From Escherichia coli (GTDB lineage Bacteria; Pseudomonadota; Gammaproteobacteria; Enterobacterales; Enterobacteriaceae), in NCBI RefSeq assembly GCF_013122565.1, contig NZ_CP053258.1: DNA of 64,000 bases. One strand, given 5' to 3'. Both the position numbers and the translations under genes were made by a program. The notes below the pieces were generated by a model. It ran no database searches and had not been told where the DNA came from. It was given only the letters and a program-made list of their open reading frames with translations. How positions within the stretch are numbered: the stretch's first letter is position 1; every line of letters begins with the position of its first letter. This document shows positions 14,064 to 43,245 of this stretch, piece after piece.

Positions 14064-15299
<1,236 letters not shown>

Positions 15300-15353: not shown

Positions 15354-15365
15354 GTTTAGCCTGCA

Positions 15366-17494: not shown

Positions 17495-17506
17495 ACTCCG
17501 ACGGGA

Positions 17507-18139: not shown

Positions 18140-18440
18140 GCGCGGTTATCCTCTGTTATAAGCTTTCTCCAGAGCCAGATAACGCCGCTGTCTCTGGATT
18201 GCCGAAATATGCTTCCCGCTACCTGGGAAGGGGCTATCAACTGTACTGCACGGTAATGTGACGTCCTTTGCATACATGCAGTACATCAATGTATTACTGT
18301 AGCATCCTGACTGTTTTAGCATAGCTTTCGCTTTGTGTCTCCTGGTGTCTCGCTTCAGCATGACCCAGGTCGCCTTCCGTTGCGCGATTTGGTTAGTACG
18401 CGTACTCTGTCAGGAAAATTGACGCAGTGGAGTAGCAAAA

Positions 18441-18845
18441 ATGCAAGCGCGAGTGAAGTGGGTCGAAGGGTTAACTTTTTTGGGCGAATCCGCCTCTGGT
18501 CACCAGATTTTAATGGACGGCAACTCAGGCGATAAAGCACCAAGTCCGATGGAAATGGTGTTGATGGCGGCGGGTGGTTGCAGTGCCATCGATGTGGTTT
18601 CGATCCTGCAAAAAGGGCGTCAGGATGTGGTCGATTGTGAAGTAAAATTGACCTCTGAACGCCGCGAAGAGGCACCACGCCTGTTTACGCACATTAATCT
18701 GCATTTTATCGTCACCGGTCGCGACCTGAAAGACGCAGCGGTTGCGCGTGCGGTTGATCTCTCTGCTGAGAAATATTGTTCAGTGGCGTTGATGCTGGAA
18801 AAAGCGGTGAATATTACTCACTCGTATGAAGTGGTTGCCGCGTGA
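18441..18845 (+). CDS. yhfA: OsmC-family protein YhfA
   Basis: 134-aa ORF-track protein; divergent from crp. Confidence 0.9.
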   Translation: MQARVKWVEGLTFLGESASGHQILMDGNSGDKAPSPMEMVLMAAGGCSAIDVVSILQKGRQDVVDCEVKLTSERREEAPRLFTHINLHFIVTGRDLKDAAVARAVDLSAEKYCSVALMLEKAVNITHSYEVVAA

Positions 18846-18865
18846 TTTAACTATCCCGTTGTGAA

Positions 18866-18887
18866 GCCGGATAGTATTTTATCCGGC
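18866..18887. other. Stem-loop between convergent yhfA and prkB
   Basis: Stem gccggata / tatccggc, 6-nt loop; no clear U-tract. Confidence 0.4.
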
Positions 18888-18899
18888 GTAATAGCAGAG

Positions 18900-19769
18900 T
18901 TACTCGATTTTCTTTCCTTCCATCAATCGTTGCACCAGCGGCAGCATAATTAATTCCATTGCCAGACCCATTTTGCCGCCGGGCACCACTAACGTATTGA
19001 TGTGGGAAATGAATGAGCCTTGCAACATCGCCAGCAGCCAGGGGAAATCGATCCCTTCCAGATTACGAAAATGGATCACCACAAAGCTTTCATCCAGCGA
19101 CGGGATACCTTTTGCCGCGAACGGGTTTGAAGTGTCGACGGTGGGAACGCGCTGGAAGTTAAGATGGGTGCGGGAAAACTGCGGTGTGATGTAGTTGATA
19201 TAGTCTTCCATTGAACGCACTACTGAGTCCATCACTGCTTCTCGTGAGTGCCCGCGCTCGCTGGTGTCGCGGATCAGTTTTTGAATCCACTCAAGGTTAA
19301 CGATAGGCACCACGCCGACCAGTAAGTCCACATGCTGCGCAACGTTATGCTGTGGCGTGACTACACCGCCGTGTAAACCTTCATAAAACAGTACATCAGT
19401 GGGTTCCGGTAAAGGTTGCCAGGGGGTGAATGTTCCCGGTACCTGATTCCAGGGTACGGCTTCGTCGTAGGTATGCAGATATTTGCGAGATTTCCCTTTG
19501 CCGCTCTGACCGTATTCAATGAAGGTTTGTTCCAGCAGGCCGAAGTCGTTCGCTTCGGGGCCGAAGTAGCTGATATGCCGCCCGGCGTCACGCGCTTTAC
19601 GGATCGCCATGTCCATTTCCGGGCGGGTGTAACGGTGAAAACTGTCGCCTTCCACCTCAGCTGCATGCAGATTTAACTGCGCGAATATTTTACGAAACGC
19701 GAGGCTGGTGGTGGTGGTCCCCGCGCCGCTGGATCCTGTTACCGCAATGACCGGATGTTTGGCAGACAT
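18900..19769 (-). CDS. prkB: Phosphoribulokinase-family protein (P-loop kinase)
   Basis: 289-aa ORF-track protein, Walker A GSSGAGTTT. Confidence 0.93.
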   Translation of the reverse strand: MSAKHPVIAVTGSSGAGTTTTSLAFRKIFAQLNLHAAEVEGDSFHRYTRPEMDMAIRKARDAGRHISYFGPEANDFGLLEQTFIEYGQSGKGKSRKYLHTYDEAVPWNQVPGTFTPWQPLPEPTDVLFYEGLHGGVVTPQHNVAQHVDLLVGVVPIVNLEWIQKLIRDTSERGHSREAVMDSVVRSMEDYINYITPQFSRTHLNFQRVPTVDTSNPFAAKGIPSLDESFVVIHFRNLEGIDFPWLLAMLQGSFISHINTLVVPGGKMGLAMELIMLPLVQRLMEGKKIE

Positions 19770-19822
19770 AGTAACTCCATGACTTAGCTATCATTATTAT
19801 CTCGTCCGCCGACGGTTGCAGG

Positions 19823-20041
19823 CTATTCGCGAAACTGACTGCGCGGCATGATATTGACCGTTTCGTGCAGCTCCGACCATACCAGCACCGCTTCTCCGCA
19901 CTGTAGCTGGCGTTTGACGTCGGCGACTTTCTGTTCAAGTGTACGCTCATGTTCACCATAATCGGTGCCTTCACGTAACACAAAGCTTTCAATTAAATTT
20001 TCCAGCGTTTCGGGGGAGAGGTCTTGCCACGGAATCAACAT
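19823..20041 (-). CDS. yheU: UPF0270-family small protein YheU
   Basis: 72-aa ORF-track protein; start overlaps yheT stop. Confidence 0.88.
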
Positions 20042-21057
20042 GATTTCGCCTCCAGATACGTTGTTAACCAGTCAGGAATGCGTGACTCCAGCCACATTTG
20101 CGGATGAAGTAATGTACCGCCAATAAAGCCAACATGACCGCCATGTTCAGTCAGTTGATACTCCACCTGCGGGGGGAGACTTTCCGGTTTCGGGATCACC
20201 TGATGATCCATAAACGGATCGTCTTTGGCGTGAATAATCAGCGTCGGTTTGGCGATCCGGTTCAGCATCGGCATGGCGCTACACTGACGATAATAGTCGA
20301 TAGCGTCAGCGTAGCCGTGAATTCTGGCGGTGATGAGATCGTCAAATTCACGGATGCGACGTACCGATTTTAACTGCGCGAGATTAATCGGCAGTGTTCC
20401 GGGGTAGGCTGCCAGCTTGCGCGCGGCATTGGCTTTTAACAGGTTCAGCAAGTAACGCTGATAAACGCGGGAAAAGCCCTTTTCCATATGATAGCTACAG
20501 GCTTCCAGCATAAACGGCGCAGAGACAATCACCGCCGCATCAACAGGGAGATCATTGCCTTCTTTTGCCAGCAAACAGGCCAGCATATTACCGCCGAGCG
20601 AATAGCCGACGGCAGCCGTTGGCGCATGACCAAATTCGCGTTGCAGCCAGCGTAAAAACCAACTGGCGTCTTCGGTTTCGCCCGAATGGTAAATGCGGTG
20701 CATACGGTTTGGTTCACCGCTGCATCCGCGAAAATGCATCACCACGCCCAGCCAGCCGCGCTTTTGCGCCGCCTCAACCAGACCGTGGGCGTAAGGGCTA
20801 TTGAGACTGCCTTCGAGACCGTGAAACACCACTAAACGCGGTTTATGTTTCGCCTGTGCGGGGTTTTCACTCCACGCGAGATCGACAAAATCGCCGTCGG
20901 GCAACTCCAGCCGCTGCCAGTGCGGGGTGAATTTCACCTGGCGACGAAACAGACGCGGCAGCATGGTTTGTAGATGACAATTGCTAAAGCCGCGCATGGG
21001 GGTGAATTCAGCACTGCTGCTGAATTCATTGGCATCGGTCGTCGTTATCTGCGCCAT
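20035..21057 (-). CDS. yheT: Alpha/beta-hydrolase-fold protein YheT
   Basis: 340-aa ORF-track protein with GYSLGG nucleophile-elbow motif. Confidence 0.92.
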
Positions 21058-22970
21058 CAGTTGCTTTGGCCTTCCAGCAGCATCTGCTCAAGCTGCTCCT
21101 GGGCTTCCAGCCACGCCATTTCACACTCTTCCAGGCCGGATTTGGCGCTGGCTTGCTGTTGCAGGCAGGCGGTCAGCTCCGCTTTACGGCTTTGATCGTA
21201 CAGTTCGCTGTCGCCGAGTTTCTCTTCCGCCTGCGCCAGCTGTGCGTTCAGCTTTTCCATCTCTTTTTCCAGACGGGCGATCTCTTTACGCAGCGGTTGG
21301 GTTTGCGCACGCAGCTCCGCTTCCCGACGCTTCTGATCTTTACGTGCCTGGGCGCTGTTTGCGTTCTCTTTTGGCGCTTCGTCGGTCTGGTTTTCTTGCT
21401 TTTGTACGTCGCTCAACCACTGTTGATAATCTTCCAGATCGCCGTCGAACGGTTCGACTTTACGATCGTGAACCAGGTAGAGGTCGTCAGTGGTGGAACG
21501 CAGCAAATGACGGTCGTGCGAAACGACAACCAGCGCGCCTTCAAACTCGATTAATGCTTCGGTGAGTGCCTGACGCATGTCGAGGTCAAGGTGGTTAGTC
21601 GGTTCGTCGAGCAGCAGCAGATTCGGCCGCTGCCAGACAATTAATGCCAGCACCAGGCGGGCTTTTTCCCCACCTGAGAAGCGGCGCGTTTCTTCGGTTA
21701 CTTTATCGCCCTGGAAACCAAAGCCGCCGAGGTAGTCACGCAGTTTTTGCTCCAGTTCCTGCGGCGCTAAACGTGCCAGATGTTGAATAGGCGATTCGTC
21801 GGCGCGCAGGTATTCAAGTTGATGCTGGGCGAAGTAGCCGAGCTTGATCCCTTTTGCCAGGCCTATTTCACCACTGACTGGCGCAAGTTCACCGGCTAAC
21901 AGTTTGATTAATGTCGATTTACCCGCGCCGTTGCGGCCTAACAGACCAATGCGCGAACCGGGGACCAGATTCAGTTTAATCGAGTCGAGAACAATGCGAT
22001 CGCCATAGCCTGCGCTGACCTTTTCCATCTTCAGTAACGGATTTGGCAGACTTTCCGGCGCGCGGAAGCTAAAGCGGAACGGGTTGTCGACGTGCGCGGG
22101 GGCAATCAGCTCCATACGCTCGAGCATCTTAATGCGGCTCTGGGCCTGCTTCGCTTTGGTGGCTTTGGCACGGAAACGGTCGATATAACTTTGCAGATGC
22201 GCTACGCGTTCCTGCTGGCTTTCGTACATCGCTTGTTGCTGCGCCAGACGGGTGGCGCGCTGTACTTCAAACGAACTGTAGTTGCCGGTGTACTCGAACA
22301 TGCTTTGTTGTTCGATATGAATAATTTTATCGACGATCGGATCGAGGAAGTCGCGGTCGTGAGAGATCAGGATCAGCGTGCCCTGATAGCTCTTCAGCCA
22401 TTTTTCCAGCCAGATAACGGCATCGAGATCGAGGTGGTTAGTCGGTTCGTCGAGCAGCAGCAAGTCTGAACGGCAAATCAGCGCCTGGGCAAGGTTAAGA
22501 CGCATACGCCAGCCACCAGAGAAATCACTTACCGGGCGCTCCAGTTGTTCATTGCTGAAACCGAGGCCGTGCAGCAGGCTGGCGGCACGGGAGCGAATAC
22601 TCCATGCGTCAATAGCATCCAGCTTGCCATGAATGGTCGCAATGGCGTGCCCGTCGTTACGTTCGTTGGCGTCGTGTAGCTGCGCTTCCAGTTGACGATA
22701 TTCACGGTCGCCGTCAATGACATATTCCAGCGCCGCTTGCGGTAACGCCGGCGTTTCCTGATTCACCCACGCCAGTTGCCAGCTTCCCGGAAAGGTGTAG
22801 CTGCCGCCGTCGGCGCTGATTTCATTTTTCAGCAATGCCAGCAGGGTAGATTTACCACAGCCGTTTTTACCCACCAGGCCGACTTTCTGCCCGGGGTTGA
22901 TGGTGGCGGTGGCATTATCCAGCAGGACGCGCACGCCGCGACGAATTTGTAACGAGGAGAAAACAATCAT
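21057..22970 (-). CDS. yheS: ABC-F family ATPase YheS (two ABC cassettes, no membrane domain)
   Basis: 637-aa ORF-track protein with duplicated Walker A (GKNGCGKST, GRNGAGKST) and ABC signature motifs plus coiled-coil C-terminus. Confidence 0.95.
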   Translation of the reverse strand: MIVFSSLQIRRGVRVLLDNATATINPGQKVGLVGKNGCGKSTLLALLKNEISADGGSYTFPGSWQLAWVNQETPALPQAALEYVIDGDREYRQLEAQLHDANERNDGHAIATIHGKLDAIDAWSIRSRAASLLHGLGFSNEQLERPVSDFSGGWRMRLNLAQALICRSDLLLLDEPTNHLDLDAVIWLEKWLKSYQGTLILISHDRDFLDPIVDKIIHIEQQSMFEYTGNYSSFEVQRATRLAQQQAMYESQQERVAHLQSYIDRFRAKATKAKQAQSRIKMLERMELIAPAHVDNPFRFSFRAPESLPNPLLKMEKVSAGYGDRIVLDSIKLNLVPGSRIGLLGRNGAGKSTLIKLLAGELAPVSGEIGLAKGIKLGYFAQHQLEYLRADESPIQHLARLAPQELEQKLRDYLGGFGFQGDKVTEETRRFSGGEKARLVLALIVWQRPNLLLLDEPTNHLDLDMRQALTEALIEFEGALVVVSHDRHLLRSTTDDLYLVHDRKVEPFDGDLEDYQQWLSDVQKQENQTDEAPKENANSAQARKDQKRREAELRAQTQPLRKEIARLEKEMEKLNAQLAQAEEKLGDSELYDQSRKAELTACLQQQASAKSGLEECEMAWLEAQEQLEQMLLEGQSN

Positions 22971-22999
22971 AAGGCGCCGTATGTTCAGACTATGTTAAC

Positions 23000-23014
23000 T
23001 TATCATTATGATAA
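23000..23014. promoter_or_regulatory. Perfect 7-1-7 palindrome TTATCAT-T-ATGATAA in the yheS/kefG divergent promoter region
   Basis: Read directly from sequence; partial Fur-box-like similarity, or overlapping divergent -10 elements; regulator unassigned. Confidence 0.35.
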
Positions 23015-23097
23015 TGTAATGTATGGGCGAGCTGCCGCACCGGGCGCAATGGTAGCCCAAAACAGCGACTATACACAAAAACCATACCGGGAGGGGG

Positions 23098-23652
23098 ATG
23101 ATGTCTCAGCCAGCGAAAGTTTTGCTGCTGTATGCCCATCCGGAATCTCAGGACTCGGTGGCAAACCGGGTACTGCTTAAACCGGCCACGCAGCTCAGCA
23201 ATGTTACCGTGCACGACCTTTACGCGCACTATCCCGATTTTTTTATTGATATCCCCCGTGAGCAGGCATTACTGCGCGAGCACGAGGTGATTGTCTTTCA
23301 GCATCCTCTTTATACCTATAGCTGCCCGGCGCTACTGAAAGAGTGGCTGGACAGGGTATTAAGCCGTGGTTTTGCCAGCGGGCCGGGAGGAAACCAACTG
23401 GCGGGAAAGTACTGGCGTAGCGTGATTACCACCGGCGAGCCGGAAAGTGCTTACCGTTATGACGCGTTGAATCGCTACCCGATGAGCGATGTCCTGCGCC
23501 CCTTTGAACTGGCGGCGGGCATGTGCCGGATGCATTGGTTAAGTCCCATCATTATTTACTGGGCGAGACGGCAAAGCGCACAGGAGCTGGCGAGCCACGC
23601 CAGAGCCTACGGTGACTGGCTGGCAAATCCGCTGTCTCCAGGAGGCCGCTGA
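23098..23652 (+). CDS. kefG: KefB ancillary protein KefG (flavodoxin-like quinone oxidoreductase fold)
   Basis: 184-aa ORF-track protein; stop overlaps kefB start (TGATG). Confidence 0.94.
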
Positions 23653-25457
23653 TGGAAGGTTCCGATTTTTTACTCGCAGGAGTGTTGTTTCTCTTCGCGG
23701 CGGTGGCTGCGGTGCCGCTGGCATCGCGGCTGGGTATTGGCGCTGTGTTGGGATATTTGCTGGCAGGGATTGCAATTGGCCCGTGGGGGCTGGGGTTTAT
23801 TAGCGACGTCGATGAGATCCTCCACTTTTCGGAACTCGGCGTGGTGTTCCTGATGTTTATCATCGGCCTTGAGTTGAATCCCTCCAAGCTTTGGCAACTG
23901 CGGCGTTCGATTTTTGGCGTAGGCGCGGCACAGGTGCTGTTAAGCGCGGCGTTGCTGGCGGGATTATTGATGCTGACGGATTTCGCCTGGCAGGCGGCGG
24001 TGGTCGGTGGCATTGGCCTTGCGATGTCTTCGACCGCAATGGCGTTGCAACTGATGCGTGAGAAAGGGATGAATCGTAGCGAATCCGGGCAGCTCGGGTT
24101 TTCGGTTCTGCTGTTTCAGGATCTGGCAGTGATCCCGGCACTGGCGTTAGTGCCGTTGTTGGCGGGGTCGGCAGACGAACATTTTGACTGGATGAAGATC
24201 GGCATGAAGGTGCTGGCGTTTGTTGGCATGCTGATTGGCGGGCGCTATTTACTGCGTCCGGTATTCCGTTTTATTGCAGCTTCTGGCGTGAGGGAAGTGT
24301 TCACCGCCGCGACGTTACTGCTGGTGTTGGGTTCCGCATTGTTTATGGATGCGCTTGGGCTGTCGATGGCGCTCGGTACGTTTATTGCGGGCGTGCTGCT
24401 GGCGGAAAGTGAATATCGCCATGAACTGGAAACGGCTATCGATCCCTTCAAAGGCTTGCTGCTCGGTTTGTTCTTTATCTCTGTCGGCATGTCACTCAAT
24501 CTCGGGGTGCTTTATACCCATCTGTTGTGGGTAGTGATAAGCGTGGTTGTGCTGGTGACGGTGAAAATTCTCGTGCTATATCTGCTGGCGCGATTATATG
24601 GCGTGCGTAGCTCAGAGCGGATGCAGTTTGCTGGCGTGTTGAGTCAGGGCGGCGAGTTTGCCTTTGTCCTCTTTTCTACTGCTTCTTCGCAACGGTTGTT
24701 TCAGGGCGACCAGATGGCGCTGTTGTTGGTGACGGTAACGCTTTCTATGATGACCACGCCACTGCTGATGAAGCTGGTGGATAAATGGCTATCCCGCCAG
24801 TTTAACGGACCAGAAGAAGAAGACGAAAAACCGTGGGTCAACGATGATAAACCGCAGGTCATTGTCGTGGGCTTCGGGCGTTTTGGGCAGGTGATTGGTC
24901 GTTTGCTGATGGCAAATAAAATGCGCATTACTGTGCTGGAGCGGGATATCAGCGCCGTTAACCTGATGCGTAAATATGGCTACAAAGTTTATTACGGTGA
25001 TGCCACGCAAGTCGATCTGTTGCGCTCTGCAGGTGCCGAGGCCGCAGAATCTATCGTGATCACCTGTAACGAACCGGAAGACACCATGAAGCTGGTGGAA
25101 ATATGCCAGCAGCACTTTCCGCATTTGCATATTCTTGCGCGAGCGCGCGGACGTGTGGAAGCGCATGAGTTATTACAGGCAGGGGTGACGCAGTTTTCCC
25201 GTGAAACATTCTCCAGTGCGTTAGAGCTGGGGCGCAAGACGCTGGTCACGCTTGGCATGCATCCGCATCAGGCACAGCGGGCGCAACTGCATTTTCGCCG
25301 CCTGGATATGCGGATGCTGCGAGAGCTCATCCCAATGCATACCGATACCGTACAAATTTCTCGCGCCAGGGAAGCCCGACGCGAACTGGAAGAGATTTTC
25401 CAGCGTGAAATGCAACAAGAACGACGCCAGCTTGACGGCTGGGATGAATTTGAGTAG
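23652..25457 (+). CDS. kefB: Glutathione-regulated potassium-efflux system protein KefB
   Basis: 601-aa ORF-track protein with CPA2 membrane domain and C-terminal KTN/RCK domain. Confidence 0.96.
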
Positions 25458-25466
25458 AGGGTAAAG

Positions 25467-25667
25467 ATGGCAATCCGAAAACGTTTTATTGCGGGCGCAA
25501 AATGCCCGGCCTGTCAGGCGCAGGATTCAATGGCGATGTGGCGCGAAAATAATATTGATATTGTTGAATGTGTTAAGTGTGGACATCAGATGCGAGAAGC
25601 AGACAAAGAAGCCCGCGATCACGTTCGCAAAGATGAGCAAGTGATCGGGATTTTTCATCCGGACTAG
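25467..25667 (+). CDS. yheV: Small zinc-ribbon-like protein YheV
   Basis: 66-aa ORF-track protein with CPAC...CVKCGH cysteine pairs. Confidence 0.85.
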   Translation: MAIRKRFIAGAKCPACQAQDSMAMWRENNIDIVECVKCGHQMREADKEARDHVRKDEQVIGIFHPD

Positions 25668-25761
25668 CGATATGCGCCGAGTTTTTTTAAGCTAGTGAGT
25701 ACACGGCTGCAGAATTCCGCTACAATCTGCGCCACTATTCTTCCCATGCTCAGGAGATATC

Positions 25762-26352
25762 ATGAAAGTAGCAAAAGACCTGGTGGTCAGCCTGGCCTAT
25801 CAGGTACGTACAGAAGACGGTGTGTTGGTTGATGAGTCTCCGGTGAGTGCGCCGCTGGACTACCTGCATGGTCACGGTTCCCTGATCTCTGGCCTGGAAA
25901 CGGCGCTGGAAGGTCATGAAGTTGGCGACAAATTTGATGTCGCTGTTGGCGCGAACGACGCTTACGGTCAGTACGACGAAAACCTGGTGCAACGTGTGCC
26001 TAAAGACGTATTTATGGGCGTTGATGAACTGCAGGTAGGTATGCGTTTCCTGGCTGAAACCGACCAGGGTCCGGTACCGGTTGAAATCACTGCGGTTGAA
26101 GACGATCACGTCGTGGTTGATGGTAACCACATGCTGGCCGGTCAGAACCTGAAATTCAACGTTGAAGTTGTGGCGATTCGCGAAGCGACTGAAGAAGAGC
26201 TGGCTCATGGCCACGTTCACGGTGCGCACGATCATCACCACGATCACGACCACGACGGTTGCTGCGGCGGTCATGGCCACGATCACGGCCATGAACACGG
26301 TGGCGAAGGCTGCTGTGGCGGTAAAGGCAACGGCGGTTGCGGTTGCCACTAA
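25762..26352 (+). CDS. slyD: FKBP-type peptidyl-prolyl isomerase/chaperone SlyD with His/Cys-rich metal-binding tail
   Basis: 196-aa ORF-track protein; C-terminus HGHVHGAHDHHHDHDHDGCCGGHGHDHGHEHGG. Confidence 0.97.
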   Translation: MKVAKDLVVSLAYQVRTEDGVLVDESPVSAPLDYLHGHGSLISGLETALEGHEVGDKFDVAVGANDAYGQYDENLVQRVPKDVFMGVDELQVGMRFLAETDQGPVPVEITAVEDDHVVVDGNHMLAGQNLKFNVEVVAIREATEEELAHGHVHGAHDHHHDHDHDGCCGGHGHDHGHEHGGEGCCGGKGNGGCGCH

Positions 26353-26373
26353 TACCGAAAAAGTGACAAAAAA

Positions 26374-26395
26374 GCGGGGAATCCCCGCTTTTTTT
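26374..26395. terminator. Bidirectional intrinsic terminator between convergent slyD and slyX
   Basis: Stem gcgggga/tccccgc flanked by A-run upstream and T-run downstream. Confidence 0.8.
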
Positions 26396-26400
26396 ACGCC

Positions 26401-26619
26401 TCAATAATGTGGCGGTGGCGTTTCTTCAGCCTGCGACGCAATGTTCGACGGCTGGCTGGCTTTTAACTTCTCGGTCAGCAGACGCAGATGATCGCGCAGT
26501 TTCGCCATCTCCATTTCATGAGCGGTCACCGTGACGTTCAGTTCTTCAATGGTGATTTCCTGAAAAGCCAGTCGGCTCTCCAGCTCTGCCAGGCGTGCTT
26601 CCAATGATAAATCCTGCAT
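26401..26619 (-). CDS. slyX: Coiled-coil protein SlyX
   Basis: 72-aa ORF-track protein. Confidence 0.9.
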
Positions 26620-26839
26620 GATTCACCTCTTTTGTCGAATGGTCGCCGCGGATTCTACTTAACTTTGCTGCCCGAGACAGCACTCATTTCGCGGTCATCG
26701 AAACTAATTTAAACAAAAAGAGTCTGAAAATAGATGATAATAGGGCGTGTCTGTATGTAGATTTGTTCGACAACGCTTTATAGTACCCTTCTGATAATAG
26801 TTAACCCTGGGGTGAGATGCCCCGATCCTGGAGATATGG

Positions 26840-27652
26840 ATGAAATCACTGTTTAAAGTAACGCTGCTGGCGACCACAATGGCCGTTGCCCTGCATGCAC
26901 CGATCACTTTTGCTGCTGAAGCTGCAAAACCTGCTACAACTGCTGACAGCAAAGCAGCGTTCAAAAATGACGATCAGAAATCAGCTTATGCACTGGGTGC
27001 TTCGCTGGGTCGTTACATGGAAAACTCTCTTAAAGAACAAGAAAAACTGGGCATCAAACTGGATAAAGATCAGCTGATCGCTGGTGTTCAGGATGCATTT
27101 GCTGATAAGAGCAAACTCTCCGACCAAGAGATCGAACAGACACTGCAAGCATTCGAAGCTCGCGTGAAGTCTTCTGCTCAGGCGAAGATGGAAAAAGACG
27201 CGGCAGATAACGAAGCGAAAGGTAAAGAGTACCGCGAGAAATTTGCCAAAGAGAAAGGTGTGAAAACCTCTTCAACTGGTCTGGTTTATCAGGTAGTCGA
27301 AGCCGGTAAAGGCGAAGCACCGAAAGACAGCGATACTGTTGTCGTGAACTACAAAGGTACGCTGATCGACGGTAAAGAGTTCGACAACTCTTACACCCGT
27401 GGTGAACCGCTCTCTTTCCGTCTGGACGGTGTTATCCCGGGGTGGACAGAAGGTCTGAAGAACATCAAGAAAGGCGGTAAGATCAAACTGGTTATTCCAC
27501 CAGAACTGGCTTACGGCAAAGCGGGTGTTCCGGGGATCCCACCGAATTCTACCCTGGTGTTTGACGTAGAGCTGCTGGATGTGAAACCAGCGCCGAAGGC
27601 TGATGCAAAGCCGGAAGCTGATGCGAAAGCCGCAGATTCTGCTAAAAAATAA
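26840..27652 (+). CDS. fkpA: Periplasmic FKBP-type peptidyl-prolyl isomerase FkpA
   Basis: 270-aa ORF-track protein with signal peptide and C-terminal FKBP domain. Confidence 0.96.
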   Translation: MKSLFKVTLLATTMAVALHAPITFAAEAAKPATTADSKAAFKNDDQKSAYALGASLGRYMENSLKEQEKLGIKLDKDQLIAGVQDAFADKSKLSDQEIEQTLQAFEARVKSSAQAKMEKDAADNEAKGKEYREKFAKEKGVKTSSTGLVYQVVEAGKGEAPKDSDTVVVNYKGTLIDGKEFDNSYTRGEPLSFRLDGVIPGWTEGLKNIKKGGKIKLVIPPELAYGKAGVPGIPPNSTLVFDVELLDVKPAPKADAKPEADAKAADSAKK

Positions 27653-27662
27653 GCATTAAGAA

Positions 27663-27692
27663 CCGCCGCCTGACCAGGCGGCGGTTTTTTTA
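27663..27692 (+). terminator. Intrinsic terminator downstream of fkpA
   Basis: Stem ccgccgcc/ggcggcgg followed by tttttttatt. Confidence 0.85.
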
Positions 27693-27818
27693 TTACAGGC
27701 CGGATATAATTAGTGCTGGAAAGCGGAACCTCCGCTGTATTAATTTAGTTACCCGCATCATTAATGAGCCTGCCCTGAAAAGTTAACGACAGGCTCCTGA
27801 AAAGGAGTGTTTTTTTTC

Positions 27819-28926
<1,108 letters not shown>

Positions 28927-28927
<1 letters not shown>

Positions 28928-29286
28928 TGAAACGAATTGCGTTTGTTTTTTCTACTGTGCCTCATGGTACCGCTGCCGGGCGGGAAGGTTTAGATGCTTT
29001 ACTGGCAACTTCCGCGTTAACTGACGAGCTGGCCGTCTTCTTTATTGCTGATGGCGTTTTTCAGCTACTGCCAGGACAAAAGCCCGGTGCGGTGCTGGCG
29101 CGTGATTACATTGCCACTTTTAAATTGTTGGGTCTGTACGACATTGAACAGTGCTGGGTTTGTGCGGCTTCACTGCGCGAACGTGGGTTAGATCCGCAGA
29201 CACCCTTTGTTGTCGAAGCCACGCCGCTCGAAGCAGATGCCTTACGCCGCGAACTTGGCAACTACGATGTAATTTTGAGGTTTTGA
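28927..29286 (+). CDS. tusC: Sulfurtransferase complex subunit TusC
   Basis: 119-aa ORF-track protein; start overlaps tusD stop. Confidence 0.94.
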
Positions 29287-29293
29287 GGCGTTT

Positions 29294-29581
29294 ATGCTGC
29301 ACACATTACATCGCTCACCCTGGCTGACGGATTTTGCTGCGCTGCTGCGTCTGCTCAGTGAAGGCGACGAACTGCTATTATTGCAAGATGGCGTAACTGC
29401 CGTAGTTGACGGTAACCGCTACCTTGAAAGTCTGCGTAATGCCCCCATTAAGGTCTATGCCCTGAACGAAGACCTTATTGCCCGCGGTTTGACTGGTCAA
29501 ATTTCGAACGACATCATTCCAATTGACTATACTGATTTCGTCAGACTTACGGTTAAGCACTCCAGCCAGATGGCCTGGTGA
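29294..29581 (+). CDS. tusB: Sulfurtransferase complex subunit TusB
   Basis: 95-aa ORF-track protein. Confidence 0.94.
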
Positions 29582-29603
29582 TGGCGGGATCGTTGTATAT
29601 TTC

Positions 29604-30648
<1,045 letters not shown>

Positions 30649-30732
30649 TCCCTTCGGAGTTTTAGTCACCAGGCGGGCGCTTCCAGTAAGCAGCCCGCTT
30701 TGGGCTACTTAAATTGAACGCCTAAAAGATAA

Positions 30733-32859
<2,127 letters not shown>

Positions 32860-32872
32860 GCCTAAGGGTTAA

Positions 32873-34114
<1,242 letters not shown>

Positions 34115-34143
34115 TTACTCGTTAATTAGTTTTGAATTAAAAA

Positions 34144-34165
34144 GGGCGCTTCGGCGCCCTTTTTG
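34144..34165 (+). terminator. Intrinsic terminator of the str operon after tufA
   Basis: Stem gggcgc/gcgccc with loop ttcg, followed by ttttt. Confidence 0.85.
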
Positions 34166-34405
34166 CATTTATTGATTGCATATCTTATTTGTAATATCAG
34201 AACGAACAAATCATTCATAATTAAAATATCATATTGAATTGATATTTTAATTATGAATATTTCTGTTTTTAAAATGCTTCATTTATCAGGCTTTTTTCTT
34301 ATTTTTAATGCTGTAATTCAATTCATATTGAAGGGTTCTCGTAAAATGTAAATAATTACTACGTAGGACTTTTGTTTTGTAGTTTTTACGTCACAAGGGA
34401 TTATA

Positions 34406-37099
34406 ATGAAATTAAATATATTTACTAAATCTATGATTGGTATGGGGCTGGTGTGTTCTGCTCTGCCTGCATTTGCTATTGAAGCATGGAATAACCAACA
34501 AGGTGGTAATAAATATCAGGTTATTTTCGATGGCAAAATTTATGAAAATGCCTGGTGGGTTTCTTCTACAAATTGCCCGGGAAAAGCGAAAGCAAATGAT
34601 GCAACTAACCCGTGGCGTTTAAAGCGTACCGCGACAGCTGCTGAAATTAGTCAGTTTGGCAATACACTTTCCTGCGAAAAGAGCGGTAGCTCATCGTCTT
34701 CAACTTCAAATACGCCAGCATCTAATACGCCGGCTAATGGCGGTTCGGCTACACCAGCACAGGGCACTGTTCCGTCTAATTCTTCTGTAGTTGCCTGGAA
34801 TAAACAGCAGGGCGGTCAGACCTGGTATGTCGTCTTTAATGGTGCGGTATATAAAAATGCCTGGTGGGTAGCCTCTTCTAACTGCCCGGGTGATGCGAAA
34901 GGCAATGATGCCAGCAACCCATGGCGTTATGTTCGTGCCGCTACGGCAACGGAAATCTCAGAAACCAGTAATCCACAGTCCTGTACTTCAGCACCACAGC
35001 CTGCACCGGATGTGAAACCGGCACCGGACGTTAAACCGGCTCCTGATGTTCAGCCAGCCCCGGCTGATAAGTCAAACGACAACTATGCTGTCGCAGCCTG
35101 GAAAGGTCAGGAAGGTTCTTCTACATGGTACGTTATCTACAACGGCGGCATTTATAAGAACGCCTGGTGGGTAGGCGCGGCAAATTGCCCAGGCGATGCG
35201 AAAGAAAACGATGCCAGCAACCCATGGCGTTATGTTCGCGCGGCAACGGCAACAGAAATCAGCCAGTATGGTAACCCAGGCTCCTGTTCCGTTAAGCCTG
35301 ATAATAATGGCGGTGCTGTGACTCCGGTTGATCCAACTCCGGAAACTCCGGTTACCCCAACTCCGGATAACAACGAGCCATCAACACCAGCGGATAGCGG
35401 TAACGATTACTCATTGCAAGCGTGGAGCGGCCAGGAAGGTAGCGAAATTTACCATGTTATTTTCAATGGTAATGTTTACAAGAATGCCTGGTGGGTTGGT
35501 TCTAAAGATTGCCCACGGGGTACCAGCGCTGAAAACTCCAATAACCCATGGCGTCTCGTGCGCACAGCTACCGCTGCGGAAATGAGTCAGTATGGTAACC
35601 CGACTACCTGTGAAATTGATAATGGCGGCGTCATTGTTGCGGATGGTTTCCAGGCCAGCAAAGCGTACAGCGCAAACAGCATCGTAGATTATAACGATGC
35701 ACATTATAAAACCTCTGTCGATCAAGACGCATGGGGCTTTGTCCCGGGCGGCGATAACCCGTGGAAGAAATACGAACCGGCGAAAGCATGGTCCGCTTCC
35801 ACCGTGTACTTGAAAGGTGATCGCGTTGTTGTTGATGGGCAGGCTTATGAAGCGCTGTTCTGGACGCAAAGTGACAACCCTGCTCTGGTTGCGAACCAAA
35901 ACGCCACCGGTAGCAATAGCCGCCCGTGGAAGCCGTTAGGTAAGGCTCAGAGCTATAGCAACGAAGAGCTGAATAATGCGCCGCAGTTTAATCCAGAAAC
36001 GCTTTATGCCAGTGATACGCTGATTCGTTTTAACGGTGAGAACTACATTTCTCAGAGTAAAGTGCAGAAAGTTTCCCCTTCTGACAGCAACCCGTGGCGT
36101 GTCTTTGTTGACTGGACCGGAACCAAAGAACGTGTAGGTACGCCGAAGAAAGCGTGGCCGAAACACGTTTATGCACCGTATGTCGACTTTACGCTGAATA
36201 CGATCCCGGATCTGGCTGCGCTGGCTAAGAATCATAACGTCAACCACTTCACGCTGGCGTTTGTGGTGAGTAAAGATGCGAACACCTGTCTGCCGACATG
36301 GGGTACCGCTTACGGTATGCAGAATTACGCTCAGTACAGCAAAATCAAAGCTCTGCGTGAGGCTGGCGGCGATGTGATGCTGTCTATCGGTGGTGCTAAC
36401 AACGCTCCGCTGGCTGCTTCCTGTAAGAACGTAGACGATCTGATGCAGCATTATTATGACATCGTTGATAACCTGAACCTCAAAGTCCTGGACTTCGATA
36501 TCGAAGGCACCTGGGTTGCGGATCAGGCATCTATTGAACGTCGTAACCTTGCTGTGAAGAAAGTGCAGGATAAATGGAAGTCAGAAGGCAAAGATATTGC
36601 TATCTGGTATACCTTGCCAATTCTGCCGACTGGCCTGACGCCGGAAGGGATGAATGTCCTGAGCGATGCCAAAGCGAAAGGTGTTGAGCTGGCGGGTGTG
36701 AACGTGATGACAATGGATTACGGTAACGCGATTTGTCAGTCTGCAAATACCGAAGGTCAGAACATCCACGGTAAGTGTGCTACGTCTGCGATTGCCAGCC
36801 TGCATGCGCAGTTGAAAGGCCTCTACGGCAATAAGAGCGATGCTGAAATTGACGCCATGATGGGTACCACGCCGATGGTTGGCGTGAACGACGTTCAGGG
36901 CGAGGTGTTCTATCTCTCTGATGCTCGTCTGGTCATGCAGGATGCGCAGAAGCGTAATCTCGGTATGGTTGGTATCTGGTCAATCGCGCGCGACCTGCCG
37001 GGCGGCACTAACCTGTCTCCGGAATTCCACGGTCTGACTAAAGAGCAGGCTCCGAAGTACGCATTTAGCGAAATCTTCGCGCCGTTTACTAAGCAATAA
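34406..37099 (+). CDS. chiA: Periplasmic endochitinase/lysozyme-like ChiA (GH18 catalytic domain with four N-terminal chitin-binding repeats)
   Basis: 897-aa ORF-track protein; signal peptide; four repeats of the AW(N/K)xQxGxxxYxVxFNGxxYKNAWWV...NPWR module; GH18 motif LDFDIEG. Confidence 0.95.
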   Translation: MKLNIFTKSMIGMGLVCSALPAFAIEAWNNQQGGNKYQVIFDGKIYENAWWVSSTNCPGKAKANDATNPWRLKRTATAAEISQFGNTLSCEKSGSSSSSTSNTPASNTPANGGSATPAQGTVPSNSSVVAWNKQQGGQTWYVVFNGAVYKNAWWVASSNCPGDAKGNDASNPWRYVRAATATEISETSNPQSCTSAPQPAPDVKPAPDVKPAPDVQPAPADKSNDNYAVAAWKGQEGSSTWYVIYNGGIYKNAWWVGAANCPGDAKENDASNPWRYVRAATATEISQYGNPGSCSVKPDNNGGAVTPVDPTPETPVTPTPDNNEPSTPADSGNDYSLQAWSGQEGSEIYHVIFNGNVYKNAWWVGSKDCPRGTSAENSNNPWRLVRTATAAEMSQYGNPTTCEIDNGGVIVADGFQASKAYSANSIVDYNDAHYKTSVDQDAWGFVPGGDNPWKKYEPAKAWSASTVYLKGDRVVVDGQAYEALFWTQSDNPALVANQNATGSNSRPWKPLGKAQSYSNEELNNAPQFNPETLYASDTLIRFNGENYISQSKVQKVSPSDSNPWRVFVDWTGTKERVGTPKKAWPKHVYAPYVDFTLNTIPDLAALAKNHNVNHFTLAFVVSKDANTCLPTWGTAYGMQNYAQYSKIKALREAGGDVMLSIGGANNAPLAASCKNVDDLMQHYYDIVDNLNLKVLDFDIEGTWVADQASIERRNLAVKKVQDKWKSEGKDIAIWYTLPILPTGLTPEGMNVLSDAKAKGVELAGVNVMTMDYGNAICQSANTEGQNIHGKCATSAIASLHAQLKGLYGNKSDAEIDAMMGTTPMVGVNDVQGEVFYLSDARLVMQDAQKRNLGMVGIWSIARDLPGGTNLSPEFHGLTKEQAPKYAFSEIFAPFTKQ
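35000..35071 (+). repeat. In-frame 18-bp tandem repeat encoding the Pro-rich linker (PAPDVK)x2-PAPDVQ-PAPADK within chiA
   Basis: Four consecutive 18-nt units read from sequence. Confidence 0.8.
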
Positions 37100-37106
37100 A
37101 TGTGTT

Positions 37107-37137
37107 GGCGATACCTTCCGGTATCGCCGCATTTTTT
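37107..37137 (+). terminator. Intrinsic terminator downstream of chiA
   Basis: 9-bp stem ggcgatacc/ggtatcgcc, loop ttcc, followed by gcatttttt. Confidence 0.85.
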
Positions 37138-37140
37138 GTC

Positions 37141-37173
37141 AATGGGCTACTTTTGGTAGCCCATTATTTTTAT
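37141..37173 (+). terminator. Second hairpin with T-run immediately after the chiA terminator (tandem terminator)
   Basis: 10-bp stem aatgggctac/gtagcccatt, loop ttttg, followed by atttttatt. Confidence 0.5.
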
Positions 37174-37267
37174 TCATATTTCTATTTTTTGCTTAAAAAA
37201 GAGTCTTTCCGTAATTGAAATAAGAACTATTTTCATTTATTTTTGAGGAAAGTATACGGGAGTCTCT

Positions 37268-37462
37268 ATGTACGTTTGTCTTTGTAATGGTATCAGCGAT
37301 AAAAAAATTCGTCAGGCTGTGCGCCAGTTTTCCCCCCACTCGTTCCAGCAATTAAAAAAATTTATTCCGGTCGGCAATCAGTGCGGTAAATGTATCCGGG
37401 CCGCGCGTGAAGTGATGGAGGATGAATTAATGCAGTTGCCGGAGTTTAAGGAGTCCGCATAA
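37268..37462 (+). CDS. bfd: Bacterioferritin-associated ferredoxin ([2Fe-2S])
   Basis: 64-aa ORF-track protein with CLC...CGKC cysteine pattern. Confidence 0.93.
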   Translation: MYVCLCNGISDKKIRQAVRQFSPHSFQQLKKFIPVGNQCGKCIRAAREVMEDELMQLPEFKESA

Positions 37463-37533
37463 ACGGAGTGTGTTTTTTGACTTACTCGTAAGCCGTTCTA
37501 CGCTTCAAAGAGTGGAAGCGAAGGAGTCAAAAA

Positions 37534-38010
37534 ATGAAAGGTGATACTAAAGTTATAAATTATCTCAACAAACTGTTGGGAAATGAGCTTGTCGCAATCA
37601 ATCAGTACTTTCTCCATGCCCGGATGTTTAAAAACTGGGGCCTCAAACGTCTCAATGATGTGGAGTATCATGAATCCATTGATGAGATGAAACATGCCGA
37701 TCGTTATATTGAGCGCATTCTTTTTCTGGAAGGTCTTCCAAACTTACAGGACCTGGGCAAACTGAACATTGGTGAAGATGTTGAGGAAATGCTGCGTTCT
37801 GATCTGGCACTTGAGCTGGATGGCGCGAAGAATTTGCGTGAGGCAATTGGTTATGCCGATAGCGTTCATGATTACGTCAGCCGCGATATGATGATAGAAA
37901 TTTTGCGCGATGAAGAAGGCCATATCGACTGGCTGGAAACGGAACTTGATCTGATTCAGAAGATGGGCCTGCAAAATTATCTGCAAGCACAGATCCGCGA
38001 AGAAGGTTGA
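37534..38010 (+). CDS. bfr: Bacterioferritin
   Basis: 158-aa ORF-track protein; SD aaggag. Confidence 0.97.
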
Positions 38011-38017
38011 GCCGTGT

Positions 38018-38037
38018 CGGGAGGGTGAACCCTCCCG
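38018..38037. other. Stem-loop between convergent bfr and gspO, adjacent to the gspO stop
   Basis: 8-bp stem cgggaggg/ccctcccg, loop tgaa; no U-tract on either strand. Confidence 0.45.
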
Positions 38038-38038
38038 G

Positions 38039-38716
38039 TTAATAAGAGATCCAGGCCAGATACCCCAGGTTTATCATGCTGCCGAGCGCAAGCCATGGGC
38101 CGAATGCAATAGTGGTTATAGTCCGGCGTTGCAGAAGTTGTGAAACGATGGCGTAACCAATGCCACCCAGCGAGGCAATCAGCAGTATCATTGGCAACGT
38201 TTGCCAGCCACACCACGCGCCTGCAGCGGCCAGTAGCTTGAAATCACCGTAGCCCAATCCCTCTTTGTGACAAACTAACCAGACGCCCCAGTAAACACAC
38301 CACAGCACCCCATAGCCAGCTACCGCGCCGTAAACCGCATCATGTAGATCAATTAATCCAGACTGCGCATTAAATACTAAGCCAAGCCAGAGCAGCGGTA
38401 AGGTGAGTTTGTCGGGCAGGAGCTGAGTGCGAAAATCAATAACACTGAGCGTGAGTGCGAAACAGAAATAGAGAAAGAGTGCGCCAGTCACTATGGGCGT
38501 GAAAGGTGCCAGGGCGCAGGCGATAGCAGCAGCAACGCAAAGTATCAGGGGCACTGTATCATGCCAGGCATATTTTTTTTGCCTGAAATGAACCAATACC
38601 TGGCGAAACGTTAACGCCGTTTTATCCTCCATAGGCGAGAGGTGATAGGCCATGGCATTAACAAAATAACCTGCAATAAAACCAATCAGAATGAAGAGCG
38701 GCAGTAGCATTGTCAT
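38039..38716 (-). CDS. gspO: Type II secretion prepilin peptidase (A24 family)
   Basis: 225-aa ORF-track polytopic membrane protein with prepilin-peptidase-like regions (VIDFRTQLLPD, GYGDFKL). Confidence 0.9.
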   Translation of the reverse strand: MTMLLPLFILIGFIAGYFVNAMAYHLSPMEDKTALTFRQVLVHFRQKKYAWHDTVPLILCVAAAIACALAPFTPIVTGALFLYFCFALTLSVIDFRTQLLPDKLTLPLLWLGLVFNAQSGLIDLHDAVYGAVAGYGVLWCVYWGVWLVCHKEGLGYGDFKLLAAAGAWCGWQTLPMILLIASLGGIGYAIVSQLLQRRTITTIAFGPWLALGSMINLGYLAWISY

Positions 38717-39177
38717 TATTGTTGCTCCCTGAAGGACAAATGCCTGAGGGTGATCTCTTCGTTTCCGGCAAGAGTAAACTGAAGGTCTTCAATAACAATA
38801 CCGTATGTTATCTGTACCTTAGTGAGCCAGTGGGAGACATTTTCGAGGGGAGCTGTGACAGGATGAATTGTCAGAGTATTGTCCGGGCCGTTTTCCAGCG
38901 TGATAGCCAAATTCTCACGTTTTGCTTCCTCGAGAAGGATATTTTTGATGGGCTGCGTAAGCGCAGGATGACCAAGTAAACCATGGGTGCTCGCTTGATC
39001 CTGCATCCATTTGATGTCCTTCTTAATTTTTTGCGCGTGGGACTGATGCTCTGCAATGTAGGTATCTATCGGTTTTATCACCCCAAGCCAACAAAAAACG
39101 CCGAGCGAGAGAACCGCCAGTGCCGCAACGATCTGTTTTTCCGATGTGGATTTTTCTGCCCACCATGATTTAATCAT
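38716..39177 (-). CDS. gspM: Type II secretion system protein M
   Basis: ORF-track frame 38716..39201; start placed at ATG 39177 (MIKSWW, 153 aa), preceded by AAGGAG and forming ATGA overlap with the gspL stop. Confidence 0.85.
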   Translation of the reverse strand: MIKSWWAEKSTSEKQIVAALAVLSLGVFCWLGVIKPIDTYIAEHQSHAQKIKKDIKWMQDQASTHGLLGHPALTQPIKNILLEEAKRENLAITLENGPDNTLTIHPVTAPLENVSHWLTKVQITYGIVIEDLQFTLAGNEEITLRHLSFREQQ

Positions 39178-40340
39178 TTCCCTGAGCTCCTTACTGTCCA
39201 TACACCACTAAGCGGATCTTTTCCTGTTTTTTCCATCGGAAGCCAGGACTGTGTTAATTCACAGAAACGATCGATATTGGCTTCACTCTTAGCACTCATT
39301 TTTAAGGTCAGCGACTTTTGCTTTTGGCTATAATTCGCTTCCATTAACTGCAGTTCAGGATGTTCCAGTAAGAGCGTTTGCAAATGATGGAGCAACGGCA
39401 CAGCTTCAGGATATTGCTGAGCGAGCTGCTGCTTAAAGTAAAAACGAAAGTTGTGGGTGCGTTTGATCTGCGGGAAATAACGTTGCCAGGTTTCTTGCTG
39501 TTGTTGCTGAAGTTGATCTTCAATCTTAAGCGTTTGCCAGAGCGCGATGCCCCGGCTGCCAACAAAAGAAAGAATGGCGAGAACGAGACAGCTTACTGCC
39601 AGGCGGGCGAGCCATTTTCCCGATTTGCTTACAGTTTTCTGTTTACGAAAAACACCATGCAGCATGTCATAGCGCTGGAATGCAATATCGGCAGAATACA
39701 AACTCAGTGATGGTATTTCAGGATGCTGGATAAGTGGATTGGTCGCTGCAACGCCGTGAGGTGCTACACCATAACAAAGCATATTCTCAGGCGGAAACTG
39801 GGCAGCAAGATGCTGTAACCAGTGTTCATCCAGTTCATTGAAGGCATGTGCGGCACTGCGAATAAGCCAGCTTGTTTGCTGGTTAACCAGAGTCCAGCTA
39901 TCTACTTCCCAGGGAAGATAGCAGCCATCTGGCAAAACCCGCGTCACGTTGAGTCCGGCAGTATGTAAACGCTCAAGATAGCGACTGAGTTTCTCCGACT
40001 GAATGCCTATCACCTCGACACTTTCGTTTTGTTTATCGACAACCGTCCAGTGCCAATTTTGGTTGGCGTCGGGTAATGTCTCCTCCGCCAACCACTGTAA
40101 TGTTTGCGCGGTGAGTTTGTATTTGGCGTTGGGCAGCGTGAGGGAACGATATAACAGACCCTCAGGTGGGATCAAAAGGTGAACATTTCCGGCACCAGGC
40201 TGATCGGCCAGCGACTCCAGCGGAAGATCGTCTGTGAGCGTATGTACCGAAGATACGCTATCTGCGGAGAACGTCATCCATTCCCAATGCTTACGCAGCG
40301 TCGAGGAAGAACGTATTACCATCAACGATTCAGGCATCAC
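39174..40340 (-). CDS. gspL: Type II secretion system protein L
   Basis: 388-aa ORF-track protein (or 387 from the second Met). Confidence 0.88.
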   Translation of the reverse strand: MMPESLMVIRSSSTLRKHWEWMTFSADSVSSVHTLTDDLPLESLADQPGAGNVHLLIPPEGLLYRSLTLPNAKYKLTAQTLQWLAEETLPDANQNWHWTVVDKQNESVEVIGIQSEKLSRYLERLHTAGLNVTRVLPDGCYLPWEVDSWTLVNQQTSWLIRSAAHAFNELDEHWLQHLAAQFPPENMLCYGVAPHGVAATNPLIQHPEIPSLSLYSADIAFQRYDMLHGVFRKQKTVSKSGKWLARLAVSCLVLAILSFVGSRGIALWQTLKIEDQLQQQQQETWQRYFPQIKRTHNFRFYFKQQLAQQYPEAVPLLHHLQTLLLEHPELQLMEANYSQKQKSLTLKMSAKSEANIDRFCELTQSWLPMEKTGKDPLSGVWTVRSSGK

Positions 40341-40351
40341 GATCCTTATGA

Positions 40352-41335
40352 TTAGTAGAGTTGCAGCGTACGCCGATAGATTTGGGCGCTCTGCTGTTTA
40401 CGGTTGAAAAAAATATGGCTTTGCCATCCCTGGGATTGTTCGTCGCTGATACTTTCCGTACTCAGCGTAAAATAGCGGCTATAGGGAAAGAGATGCCCTT
40501 TCACCTGAGCAACCAGGGGCTTCACGCCGGAGAAATCCTGCTGCGCCCAGTAAAGAAATGCTTCCGTGGTTAGCCAGCCTTCCCTCGGCTTTTTTTGTAA
40601 TAAGACCCGAGCGTCAGCATCCGTGATGTTATTGAGGAATAACGCTCTGAAGAGCGGAATATCGTTCTCCGTTAGCATATTAAGATTGATGCTAAGTTCC
40701 TTAGTCGGGAGAACGCAGACATACGGGATAAGCCGCTGATAGATGTTTTCGGTTATGCCTTTTATCTGACGCAATTCACCGGTCAGAAAAAGCATCTGAT
40801 TGGCGCTATGGCGAGGCGGCGTCTGGCTTTGGTAAAAGTTATCTTCTGCGCCGTGAAAGCGTGGCGAATCATCGGCATCAATATAGTCAGCGATTGATTG
40901 CACGAGCTCATCGGTGTTTCCGCGATCGATACCGGCGTTAATCAGCAGCGCACTGAATACCTGGGCGGGGAAATCAGGGGAAGCCAGCGGGTCGTCAGAG
41001 ATTTTTGCTAACGCATTGAGATTAAAACAGTGCTGGGCATCGCGTAACTGCCACTTCACTGTATTGCCATCTTCCAGCTGCAACTGTTGTGGCTGTGCCC
41101 AGTACTGCTGCAACGTGGTCTGTCTGTCGTTATCTTTAACGTCCTGGGTGAGGCTGGCAAGCGCAAGTTTCTCCGCCAGTTCAATATCATATTGCCGTTG
41201 CAAATGATGGTTTACCTGGCGGGTTCGCTGAAGCTGGCTGTGAAAACTGAGCGTCATGTCTGCTGCCAGAGCAGCCATGAGCGCCAGTAACATGAGTACA
41301 ATGAGCAGCGCGACGCCGCGTTGTTCATTATTCAT
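40352..41335 (-). CDS. gspK: Type II secretion minor pseudopilin K
   Basis: 327-aa ORF-track protein with N-terminal hydrophobic segment. Confidence 0.9.
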   Translation of the reverse strand: MNNEQRGVALLIVLMLLALMAALAADMTLSFHSQLQRTRQVNHHLQRQYDIELAEKLALASLTQDVKDNDRQTTLQQYWAQPQQLQLEDGNTVKWQLRDAQHCFNLNALAKISDDPLASPDFPAQVFSALLINAGIDRGNTDELVQSIADYIDADDSPRFHGAEDNFYQSQTPPRHSANQMLFLTGELRQIKGITENIYQRLIPYVCVLPTKELSINLNMLTENDIPLFRALFLNNITDADARVLLQKKPREGWLTTEAFLYWAQQDFSGVKPLVAQVKGHLFPYSRYFTLSTESISDEQSQGWQSHIFFNRKQQSAQIYRRTLQLY

Positions 41336-41915
41336 GGTTATTATTCCCGGCCTGCGTCTGAGCTGGCGACTCTTCTCTCGCTAACTGCTCAGGTAATGCA
41401 AAACGGCGCTGTAACACCCCATATTGCTGAGTCTGCAGATGTAACGTGACTGAGAGAGGAAGTTCCTGGCTTTCCCCGCTGTTACTTTCCATAAGAAAGC
41501 TCTCGACATGTTCCAGCATCGCCTGGGCGGGTTGATCCTTCCTGCCATCCACAGAAGTACGAACAGCACGGTAGAGCGTATGATTTCGTAGATACCAGTG
41601 AACTGTGAGTAAGGTTTGTGCTTCACTGAGAGGAGCCAGCGGATCGCGACTTTGCGTGGTAAAAATAGCTTCTTCACCCAACACCATGATCTTGTCCGTA
41701 CTCCGATTCCTCCGGGCGACCAATTGCAGGAGATCGTTATCAAGAATGGTGATGGTGCGCTGTAGCTGATTGAACTGCTGGATTTCTTTCTGTGAACGTT
41801 GATGCAACTCGGAAGCTTGCGAAAAAATCATAAACGCCAGCACGCTAAGCATTGAGAAAATCGCCAGCGCCGCCATGACCTCCAGCAATGTGAAACCCTG
41901 CTGGCGATTAATCAT
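41328..41915 (-). CDS. gspJ: Type II secretion minor pseudopilin J
   Basis: 195-aa ORF-track protein with prepilin-type N-terminus [10 protein letters not shown]. Confidence 0.9.
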
Positions 41916-42791: not shown

Positions 42792-42798
42792 CGCTGAC

Positions 42799-43236: not shown

Positions 43237-43245
43237 ATGCTTTCC

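Follow-up and report, generated by a model that had tools for sequence, protein, structure and literature searches.

The window, i.e. the whole analysed stretch of 64,000 nucleotides of Escherichia coli DNA, carries rpsL, rpsG, fusA and tufA in this order, and rpsG is thus found in its str operon context. The following features surround the end of rpsG:

29707..30081, + strand: rpsL, which encodes ribosomal protein S12 and opens the str operon; taken from the list of open reading frames, 0 nucleotide differences from MG1655 b3342
30082..30177, + strand: rpsL-rpsG intercistronic region, translational operator of S7 according to the literature (PMC3616713)
30178..30648, + strand: rpsG, 156-aa ribosomal protein S7 plus stop codon; open reading frame ending in ...AFAHYRW
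30646..30648, + strand: TAA, at which rpsG stops; a T follows, hence the tetranucleotide TAAT
30649..30744, + strand: rpsG-fusA spacer of 96 nt, non-coding; K-12 MG1655 translates the initial 66 nt (30649..30714) as 22 codons of the S7 extension
30670..30702, + strand: predicted conserved GC-rich RNA hairpin in the spacer; RNAalifold consensus, centroid stem in the window alone 30672..30699
30715..30717, + strand: in-frame TGA, the stop codon of the 179-aa K-12 S7; ribosomes stopping earlier would have no access to it
30735..30739, + strand: GAGGA Shine-Dalgarno sequence of fusA, 5 nt before the ATG; kept in all aligned Enterobacteriaceae spacers
30745..32859, + strand: fusA (elongation factor G); taken from the list of open reading frames, 2 synonymous differences from K-12
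32930..34114, + strand: tufA, which encodes elongation factor Tu and closes the str operon; 3' part tufB-like

The rpsG gene of the window encodes uS7 in its 156-aa enterobacterial form (WP_001138043.1), with ...AHYRW followed directly by the stop codon, and the exact protein is present in a public collection as 30S ribosomal protein S7. The original prediction had S7 end at the TAA at 30646..30648 after ...AHYRW and had the frame stay open for 22 further sense codons (30649..30714) up to the TGA at 30715..30717; its coordinates were exact in both respects (open reading frame 30178..30648, 156 aa). At the nucleotide level, the gene is identical to rpsG of strains BL21(DE3), WG1 and NCM3722, all annotated as WP_001138043.1. 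The same protein, known as the wild-type ‘B-type’ S7, occurs in BL21(DE3), O157:H7, UM146 and CE10 with the 471-nt coding sequence, the TAA stop codon and the operon position of the window. While the surrounding genomes of these four strains deviate from the window by 1.1-2.2%, the locus itself shows no difference, and in BL21(DE3) the nucleotide sequence of rpsL, rpsG and the spacer is identical to that of the window.

One base separates the window from the MG1655-type allele

That S7 of K-12 and S7 of B differ in length has been known from protein and DNA sequences since about 1980. Aligned to MG1655, the window shows zero differences over 29600..30646, and when 161 nt of the window were aligned with both MG1655 and C600, position 30647 turned out to be the sole variable column, with A in the window and T in both K-12 strains. 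This change from TAA to TTA yields Leu157 in place of the stop codon in MG1655 and C600. The rpsG gene of MG1655 (b3341) is a 540-nt coding sequence with a 179-aa product, the translation of which consists of the 156 residues found in the window, a leucine and the same 22 residues encoded downstream. The rpsG allele of MG1655, W3110 and EMG2 shares 156 codons and the 69 nt after the stop codon with the window; it has, however, T at the position equivalent to 30647, hence TTA at codon 157, and reads on to the TGA at 30715..30717, whereas the window has A, hence TAA, and stops. The claim that the 23-residue extension of the 179-aa K-12 S7 stems from a change at the stop codon was thus confirmed, and the change comes down to one base, 30647 A>T. 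Among the 65 window genes mapped to K-12, rpsG is the only one that differs in length.

The rpsG mutation and the resulting extension are counted among the alterations common to EMG2, MG1655 and W3110, and the difference in S7 length is treated in recent comparisons of K-12 genomes (PMC9997739). The same source, together with work cited there, connects K-12 S7 ending at UGA, in combination with Thr246 of K-12 RF2, with SsrA tagging. As judged from this literature, SsrA-tagged S7 would be expected in K-12, where rpsG ends at UGA and prfB encodes Thr246; the rpsG gene of the window ends at UAA, and the first of these two prerequisites is absent, while prfB is not among the genes that the window covers.

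The allele also has a visible effect on genome annotation. In K-12 derivatives, RefSeq/PGAP marks the essential rpsG gene as a pseudogene (‘incomplete; missing C-terminus’) and cuts it at codon 156, because the stop codon is missing. Examples are C600-p2-3 (retrieved locus 379..846) and BW25113 (retrieved locus 1..439), while the curated MG1655 record retains the 179-aa coding sequence. Such a flag on an essential gene can mislead pseudogene counts and essentiality analyses.

Frequency of both alleles and direction of the change

We surveyed 5,425 complete RefSeq E. coli genomes for exact matches to an 81-bp query centred on the stop codon. The form of the window (TAA) was found in 5,012 genomes (~92%) and the K-12 form (TTA) in 348; the 65 genomes with some other change within the 81 bp were counted under neither form. 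It had been claimed that the short form is that of strain B and of most natural isolates, in good agreement with its presence in BL21(DE3) and with the observed share of complete genomes. To characterise the carriers of TTA, we sampled 60 genomes evenly spaced across the 348 perfect matches. The sample includes the K-12 derivatives MG1655, BW25113, DH5alpha, DH1, AB1157, MC4100, TG1 and HB101 as well as the standard conjugation recipients J53, C600 and EC600, and its remaining genomes are of K-12 size. All sampled TTA genomes (60 of 348) are K-12 derivatives, K-12 conjugation recipients included.

For an outgroup, species-representative genomes were scanned with TTCGCACACTACCGTTGGTNA, a motif from the coding sequence of the S7 C-terminus, which gave at least 120 matches. 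Among the 120 matches listed, the codon following the motif is TAA in 118 cases, TGA in 2 and a sense codon in none; no record of E. coli or Shigella is among the TTCGCACACTACCGTTGGTNA matches listed. TAA is the ancestral state, given that all listed species representatives with the motif have a stop codon at this position, and TTA is derived and, among the genomes sampled, confined to the K-12 pedigree. This direction of change is also supported by the K-12 strains WG1 and NCM3722, which keep TAA. The exact 21-nt enterobacterial motif was additionally found in genomes labelled Oscillospiraceae, Lentisphaerae, Limosilactobacillus and Weissella and in other distant genomes, with unrelated sequence downstream; the same codon choice for the conserved peptide FAHYRW seems the likeliest cause.

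The frequencies also bear on the possibility that an error in sequencing or assembly put the TAA into the window, or that a TTA background has recently reverted; the change of a single base would suffice for either. We consider this extremely improbable. An error had been named as a possible source of the stop codon, but is very unlikely given that 5,012 of 5,425 genomes share these 81 bp without any difference and TAA is the majority allele. Moreover, the genomic background is not that of K-12 (see below), and related drafts as well as an independent read-based assembly of the lineage all give a 156-aa S7.

The stop codon as a strain marker and the lineage of the source

The original prediction went one step further and concluded from the TAA stop codon that the source is not a K-12 strain. 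This conclusion stands, the reasoning behind it does not. Two K-12 strains, NCM3722 and WG1, have the same 471-nt rpsG gene with a TAA stop codon, encoding WP_001138043.1 in WG1, and both are identical to the window at the nucleotide level over 29707..30746, i.e. across rpsL, rpsG and the spacer. Hence, a K-12 reference with the same TAA does exist, which the original prediction had itself named as a refuting result, and TAA is not a valid criterion for excluding K-12. WG1 has been described to resemble NCM3722 (PMC9997739), and this branch of K-12 never acquired the rpsG mutation. Lack of TAA does not define K-12 across its sub-lineages, and only the converse holds among the sampled TTA genomes. 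The stop codon alone is a one-way marker: TTA points to the branch of EMG2, MG1655 and W3110, while TAA says nothing about K-12. The earlier reading was therefore right in its facts and in its conclusion, but its diagnostic logic is invalid for the WG1/NCM3722 branch.

What excludes K-12 is the divergence of the whole window, a comparison that the original prediction had suggested as a check. It is colinear with positions 3,440,259..3,504,252 of MG1655 (reverse strand) at 98.65% identity, and a count of differences over the 64 kb gave 861 SNPs and 6 gap columns. Near-identity to the MG1655 reference, as would be expected of any K-12 sub-lineage, was not found. An origin from the WG1/NCM3722 branch with its ancestral TAA would explain the stop codon and the identity over 29707..30746, but has next to no probability: outside the strongly conserved str operon, this branch is K-12, with NCM3722 differing from MG1655 at 2 of 45,001 bases in this region, whereas 574 of 43,404 aligned bases are mismatched between NCM3722 and the window, and MG1655 differs from the window at the 861 sites mentioned above. 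The whole-window comparison thus refutes a K-12 origin. Differences from MG1655 are few in the ribosomal protein operons and many in the gsp, chiA and kefB regions. All 65 mapped genes of the window are intact and the changes relative to K-12 are mostly synonymous; taken together, the differences look like natural divergence. As for differences in length, only two 1-base insertions and a 4-base insertion (GTAA) relative to K-12 occur in 64 kb (4549, 4989 and 5019..5022), and all three fall into the yhfL-cysG intergenic region.

We also determined the divergence between the window and other strains over positions 10700..34100 of the window (21931..30916 for E. whittamii). The lowest value was obtained for deer strain 48 (1.11%), followed by O157:H7 (1.20%), K-12 (1.34%), BL21(DE3) (1.38% over 23.4 kb), CE10 (1.71%) and UM146 (2.18%), whereas E. 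whittamii was found at 5.87%. In the same matrix, E. coli strains are 0.6-2.0% divergent among themselves. A distance of 1.1-2.2% to six phylogroup representatives as against 5.9% to E. whittamii places the window within E. coli, and the distance matrix rules out a cryptic clade or sister species of Escherichia as its source.

The first description of the short S7 came from E. coli B, and an origin of the window from this strain (BL21/REL606) would fit the 471-nt rpsG gene and the rpsL-rpsG-spacer sequence that BL21(DE3) has in common with the window. We nevertheless give this origin virtually no credence. Near-identity to BL21(DE3) was not found, and the 1.38% divergence over 23.4 kb refutes it. 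In addition, gspD is truncated and chiA is shorter in BL21(DE3), while both genes are full-length in the window. Finally, over window positions 2001..27000, identity stays below 99% for all of 5,426 complete RefSeq E. coli assemblies, with best matches at 98.5-98.6%; over 34001..50000, the best match among complete RefSeq E. coli genomes reaches 97.8%.

Rare protein variants of ArgD, TusD, GspL and GspA encoded in the window correspond to the GenBank entries QJU26644, QJU26658, QJU26670 and QJU26680, which are labelled [Escherichia coli]. Window positions 35210..50337 (15,128 bp) are matched at 100.000% identity by a contig assembled from SRA run SRR11451224, and look-ups of ChiA and TusD gave relatives with 98.9-99.5% identity. 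Based on these sequence comparisons, the source is E. coli sensu stricto and belongs to a rarely sampled lineage which is neither K-12 nor B. Shigella was also considered as a source in view of the best match of 98.5-98.6%, but was set aside given the rare proteins labelled E. coli, all located on one 4.82-Mb contig, and the 65 intact genes. For practical purposes, strain calls are better based on genome-wide differences than on the rpsG stop codon.

The open frame downstream of the stop codon and the spacer hairpin

The 22 sense codons downstream of the TAA raise the question of whether wild strains use them as a functional, conditional extension of S7 by programmed readthrough, which K-12 would then make constitutively. 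The frame is indeed open for 22 codons in the window and, among the matches listed, E. whittamii, several Citrobacter species, Atlantibacter and Intestinirhabdus have the same 22 codons free of stops. The probability of 22 stop-free codons by chance is, however, ~0.35, calculated as (61/64)^22. In the 120 species-representative matches listed, the stop-free run after the S7 stop codon can be as short as 0 and as long as at least 39 codons, several genera among these carry TAATAA at the end of S7, and indels in the spacers of relatives are not multiples of three. The pattern of conservation is that of base-paired RNA with compensatory changes. The downstream frame is thus not conserved in the manner of a coding sequence. 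UAA followed by U is, furthermore, the most efficient termination signal of E. coli. We consider programmed readthrough very unlikely; the open frame is a matter of chance and the spacer is non-coding.

The RNA-like conservation traces back to a hairpin. In the centroid fold of the window sequence, 30672..30682 pairs with 30688..30699. A consensus computed with RNAalifold from 25 distinct aligned Enterobacteriaceae spacers predicts a helix at 30670..30702 with 13 pairs, 5 of which show compensatory changes. Paired cells amount to 97.5% in this helix compared to 30.7-58.8% in controls with the 3' partner slid. None of 500 shuffles matched the observed pairing or covariation score, although column shuffles can be outscored by related sequences even where no structure exists. 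Whole-spacer folding predicts that the more distant genera Photorhabdus, Xenorhabdus, Morganella, Providencia and Pantoea form hairpins in the corresponding position with an entirely different sequence, and 63 of 68 distinct spacers fold at z < -1.5 relative to mononucleotide shuffles. The case for the hairpin rests on these comparative data rather than on energy alone, because the z-score of 30640..30750 (111 nt) against dinucleotide shuffles is only -0.82. Overall, the hairpin appears to keep its place and its pairing throughout Enterobacterales, whereas the sequence varies.

A scan of 29500..30800 with the Rfam 15 covariance models gave zero matches at E-values up to 1, and a scan for consensus terminators found no intrinsic terminator in the rpsG-fusA spacer. 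Across the whole window, only one Rfam family reaches its gathering score, namely Alpha_RBS (RF00140, 102.7 bits) at 61709..61820; this is the alpha operon leader, which is bound by S4 and lies upstream of rpsM. A structured intercistronic RNA beside rpsG is already known from the same operon, namely the autoregulatory RNA of S7 between rpsL and rpsG. This S7-binding operator has been placed upstream of rpsG (30082..30177; PMC3616713), whereas the hairpin lies downstream and belongs to no Rfam family. Tentatively, the hairpin may act in cis as an RNA element of the str operon that has so far not been described, for instance as a determinant of processing or stability or as a modulator of fusA translation, although we regard this as rather unlikely. 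If it were true, the TTA of K-12 would make ribosomes unwind the hairpin and terminate only 27 nt before fusA, and MG1655-type strains would be atypical in EF-G expression.

Interpretation of the rpsG allele

Following this argumentation, the rpsG gene of the window is almost certainly the ordinary ancestral allele in a natural E. coli that is neither K-12 nor B. The window simply lacks the TAA>TTA mutation of a laboratory lineage and represents the wild-type state of a textbook polymorphism, which is already known and ordinary. In the window, synthesis of S7 would end after Trp156 at UAA followed by U, where termination can be expected to be efficient according to the literature. The ribosome would leave the mRNA 96 nt before the start of fusA, the spacer would be free to fold into the hairpin, and fusA would be initiated from its own GAGGA Shine-Dalgarno sequence. 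In the K-12 branch behind EMG2, MG1655 and W3110, a single A>T transversion at the position equivalent to 30647 lets ribosomes continue through the spacer, where 22 codons happen to be free of stops and take in both hairpin arms, up to the UGA 27 nt before fusA, which yields the 179-aa S7. The extension could thereby alter the expression of EF-G in K-12. For biology, the finding carries little weight; the strain difference has long been known.

Neighbouring loci

The tufA gene (32930..34114) has K-12 tufA-type bases at ten diagnostic sites in its 5' part and tufB-type bases at the last four diagnostic sites (positions 597, 1167, 1170 and 1180 of the coding sequence; 33526 and 34096..34109 of the window). 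The tufB-type bases at the 3' end lead to a TufB-type C-terminal Ser instead of Gly, while the downstream flank is of tufA type. This pattern fits a tract of gene conversion from tufB to tufA, which is a known phenomenon.

Between tufA and rpsJ, the window carries a block with chiA, bfd, bfr, gspO to gspC, gspA and gspB (34406..50751), which is complete with all open reading frames intact. Window positions 34001..50000 are covered to at least 80% in only 3,002 of the 5,425 complete E. coli genomes. In place of this block, bfd, bfr and a remnant of the prepilin peptidase gene are all that is found in O157:H7, CE10 and deer strain 48. Within chiA, the 108-bp stretches 34850..34957 and 35153..35260 form an internal repeat with ~84% identity, presumably encoding repeated binding modules. 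The gene order differs in UM146, where secE and nusG, not chiA or bfd, come next to the tuf gene behind fusA (retrieved locus 22831..25175), which points to an inversion between its tufA and tufB loci.
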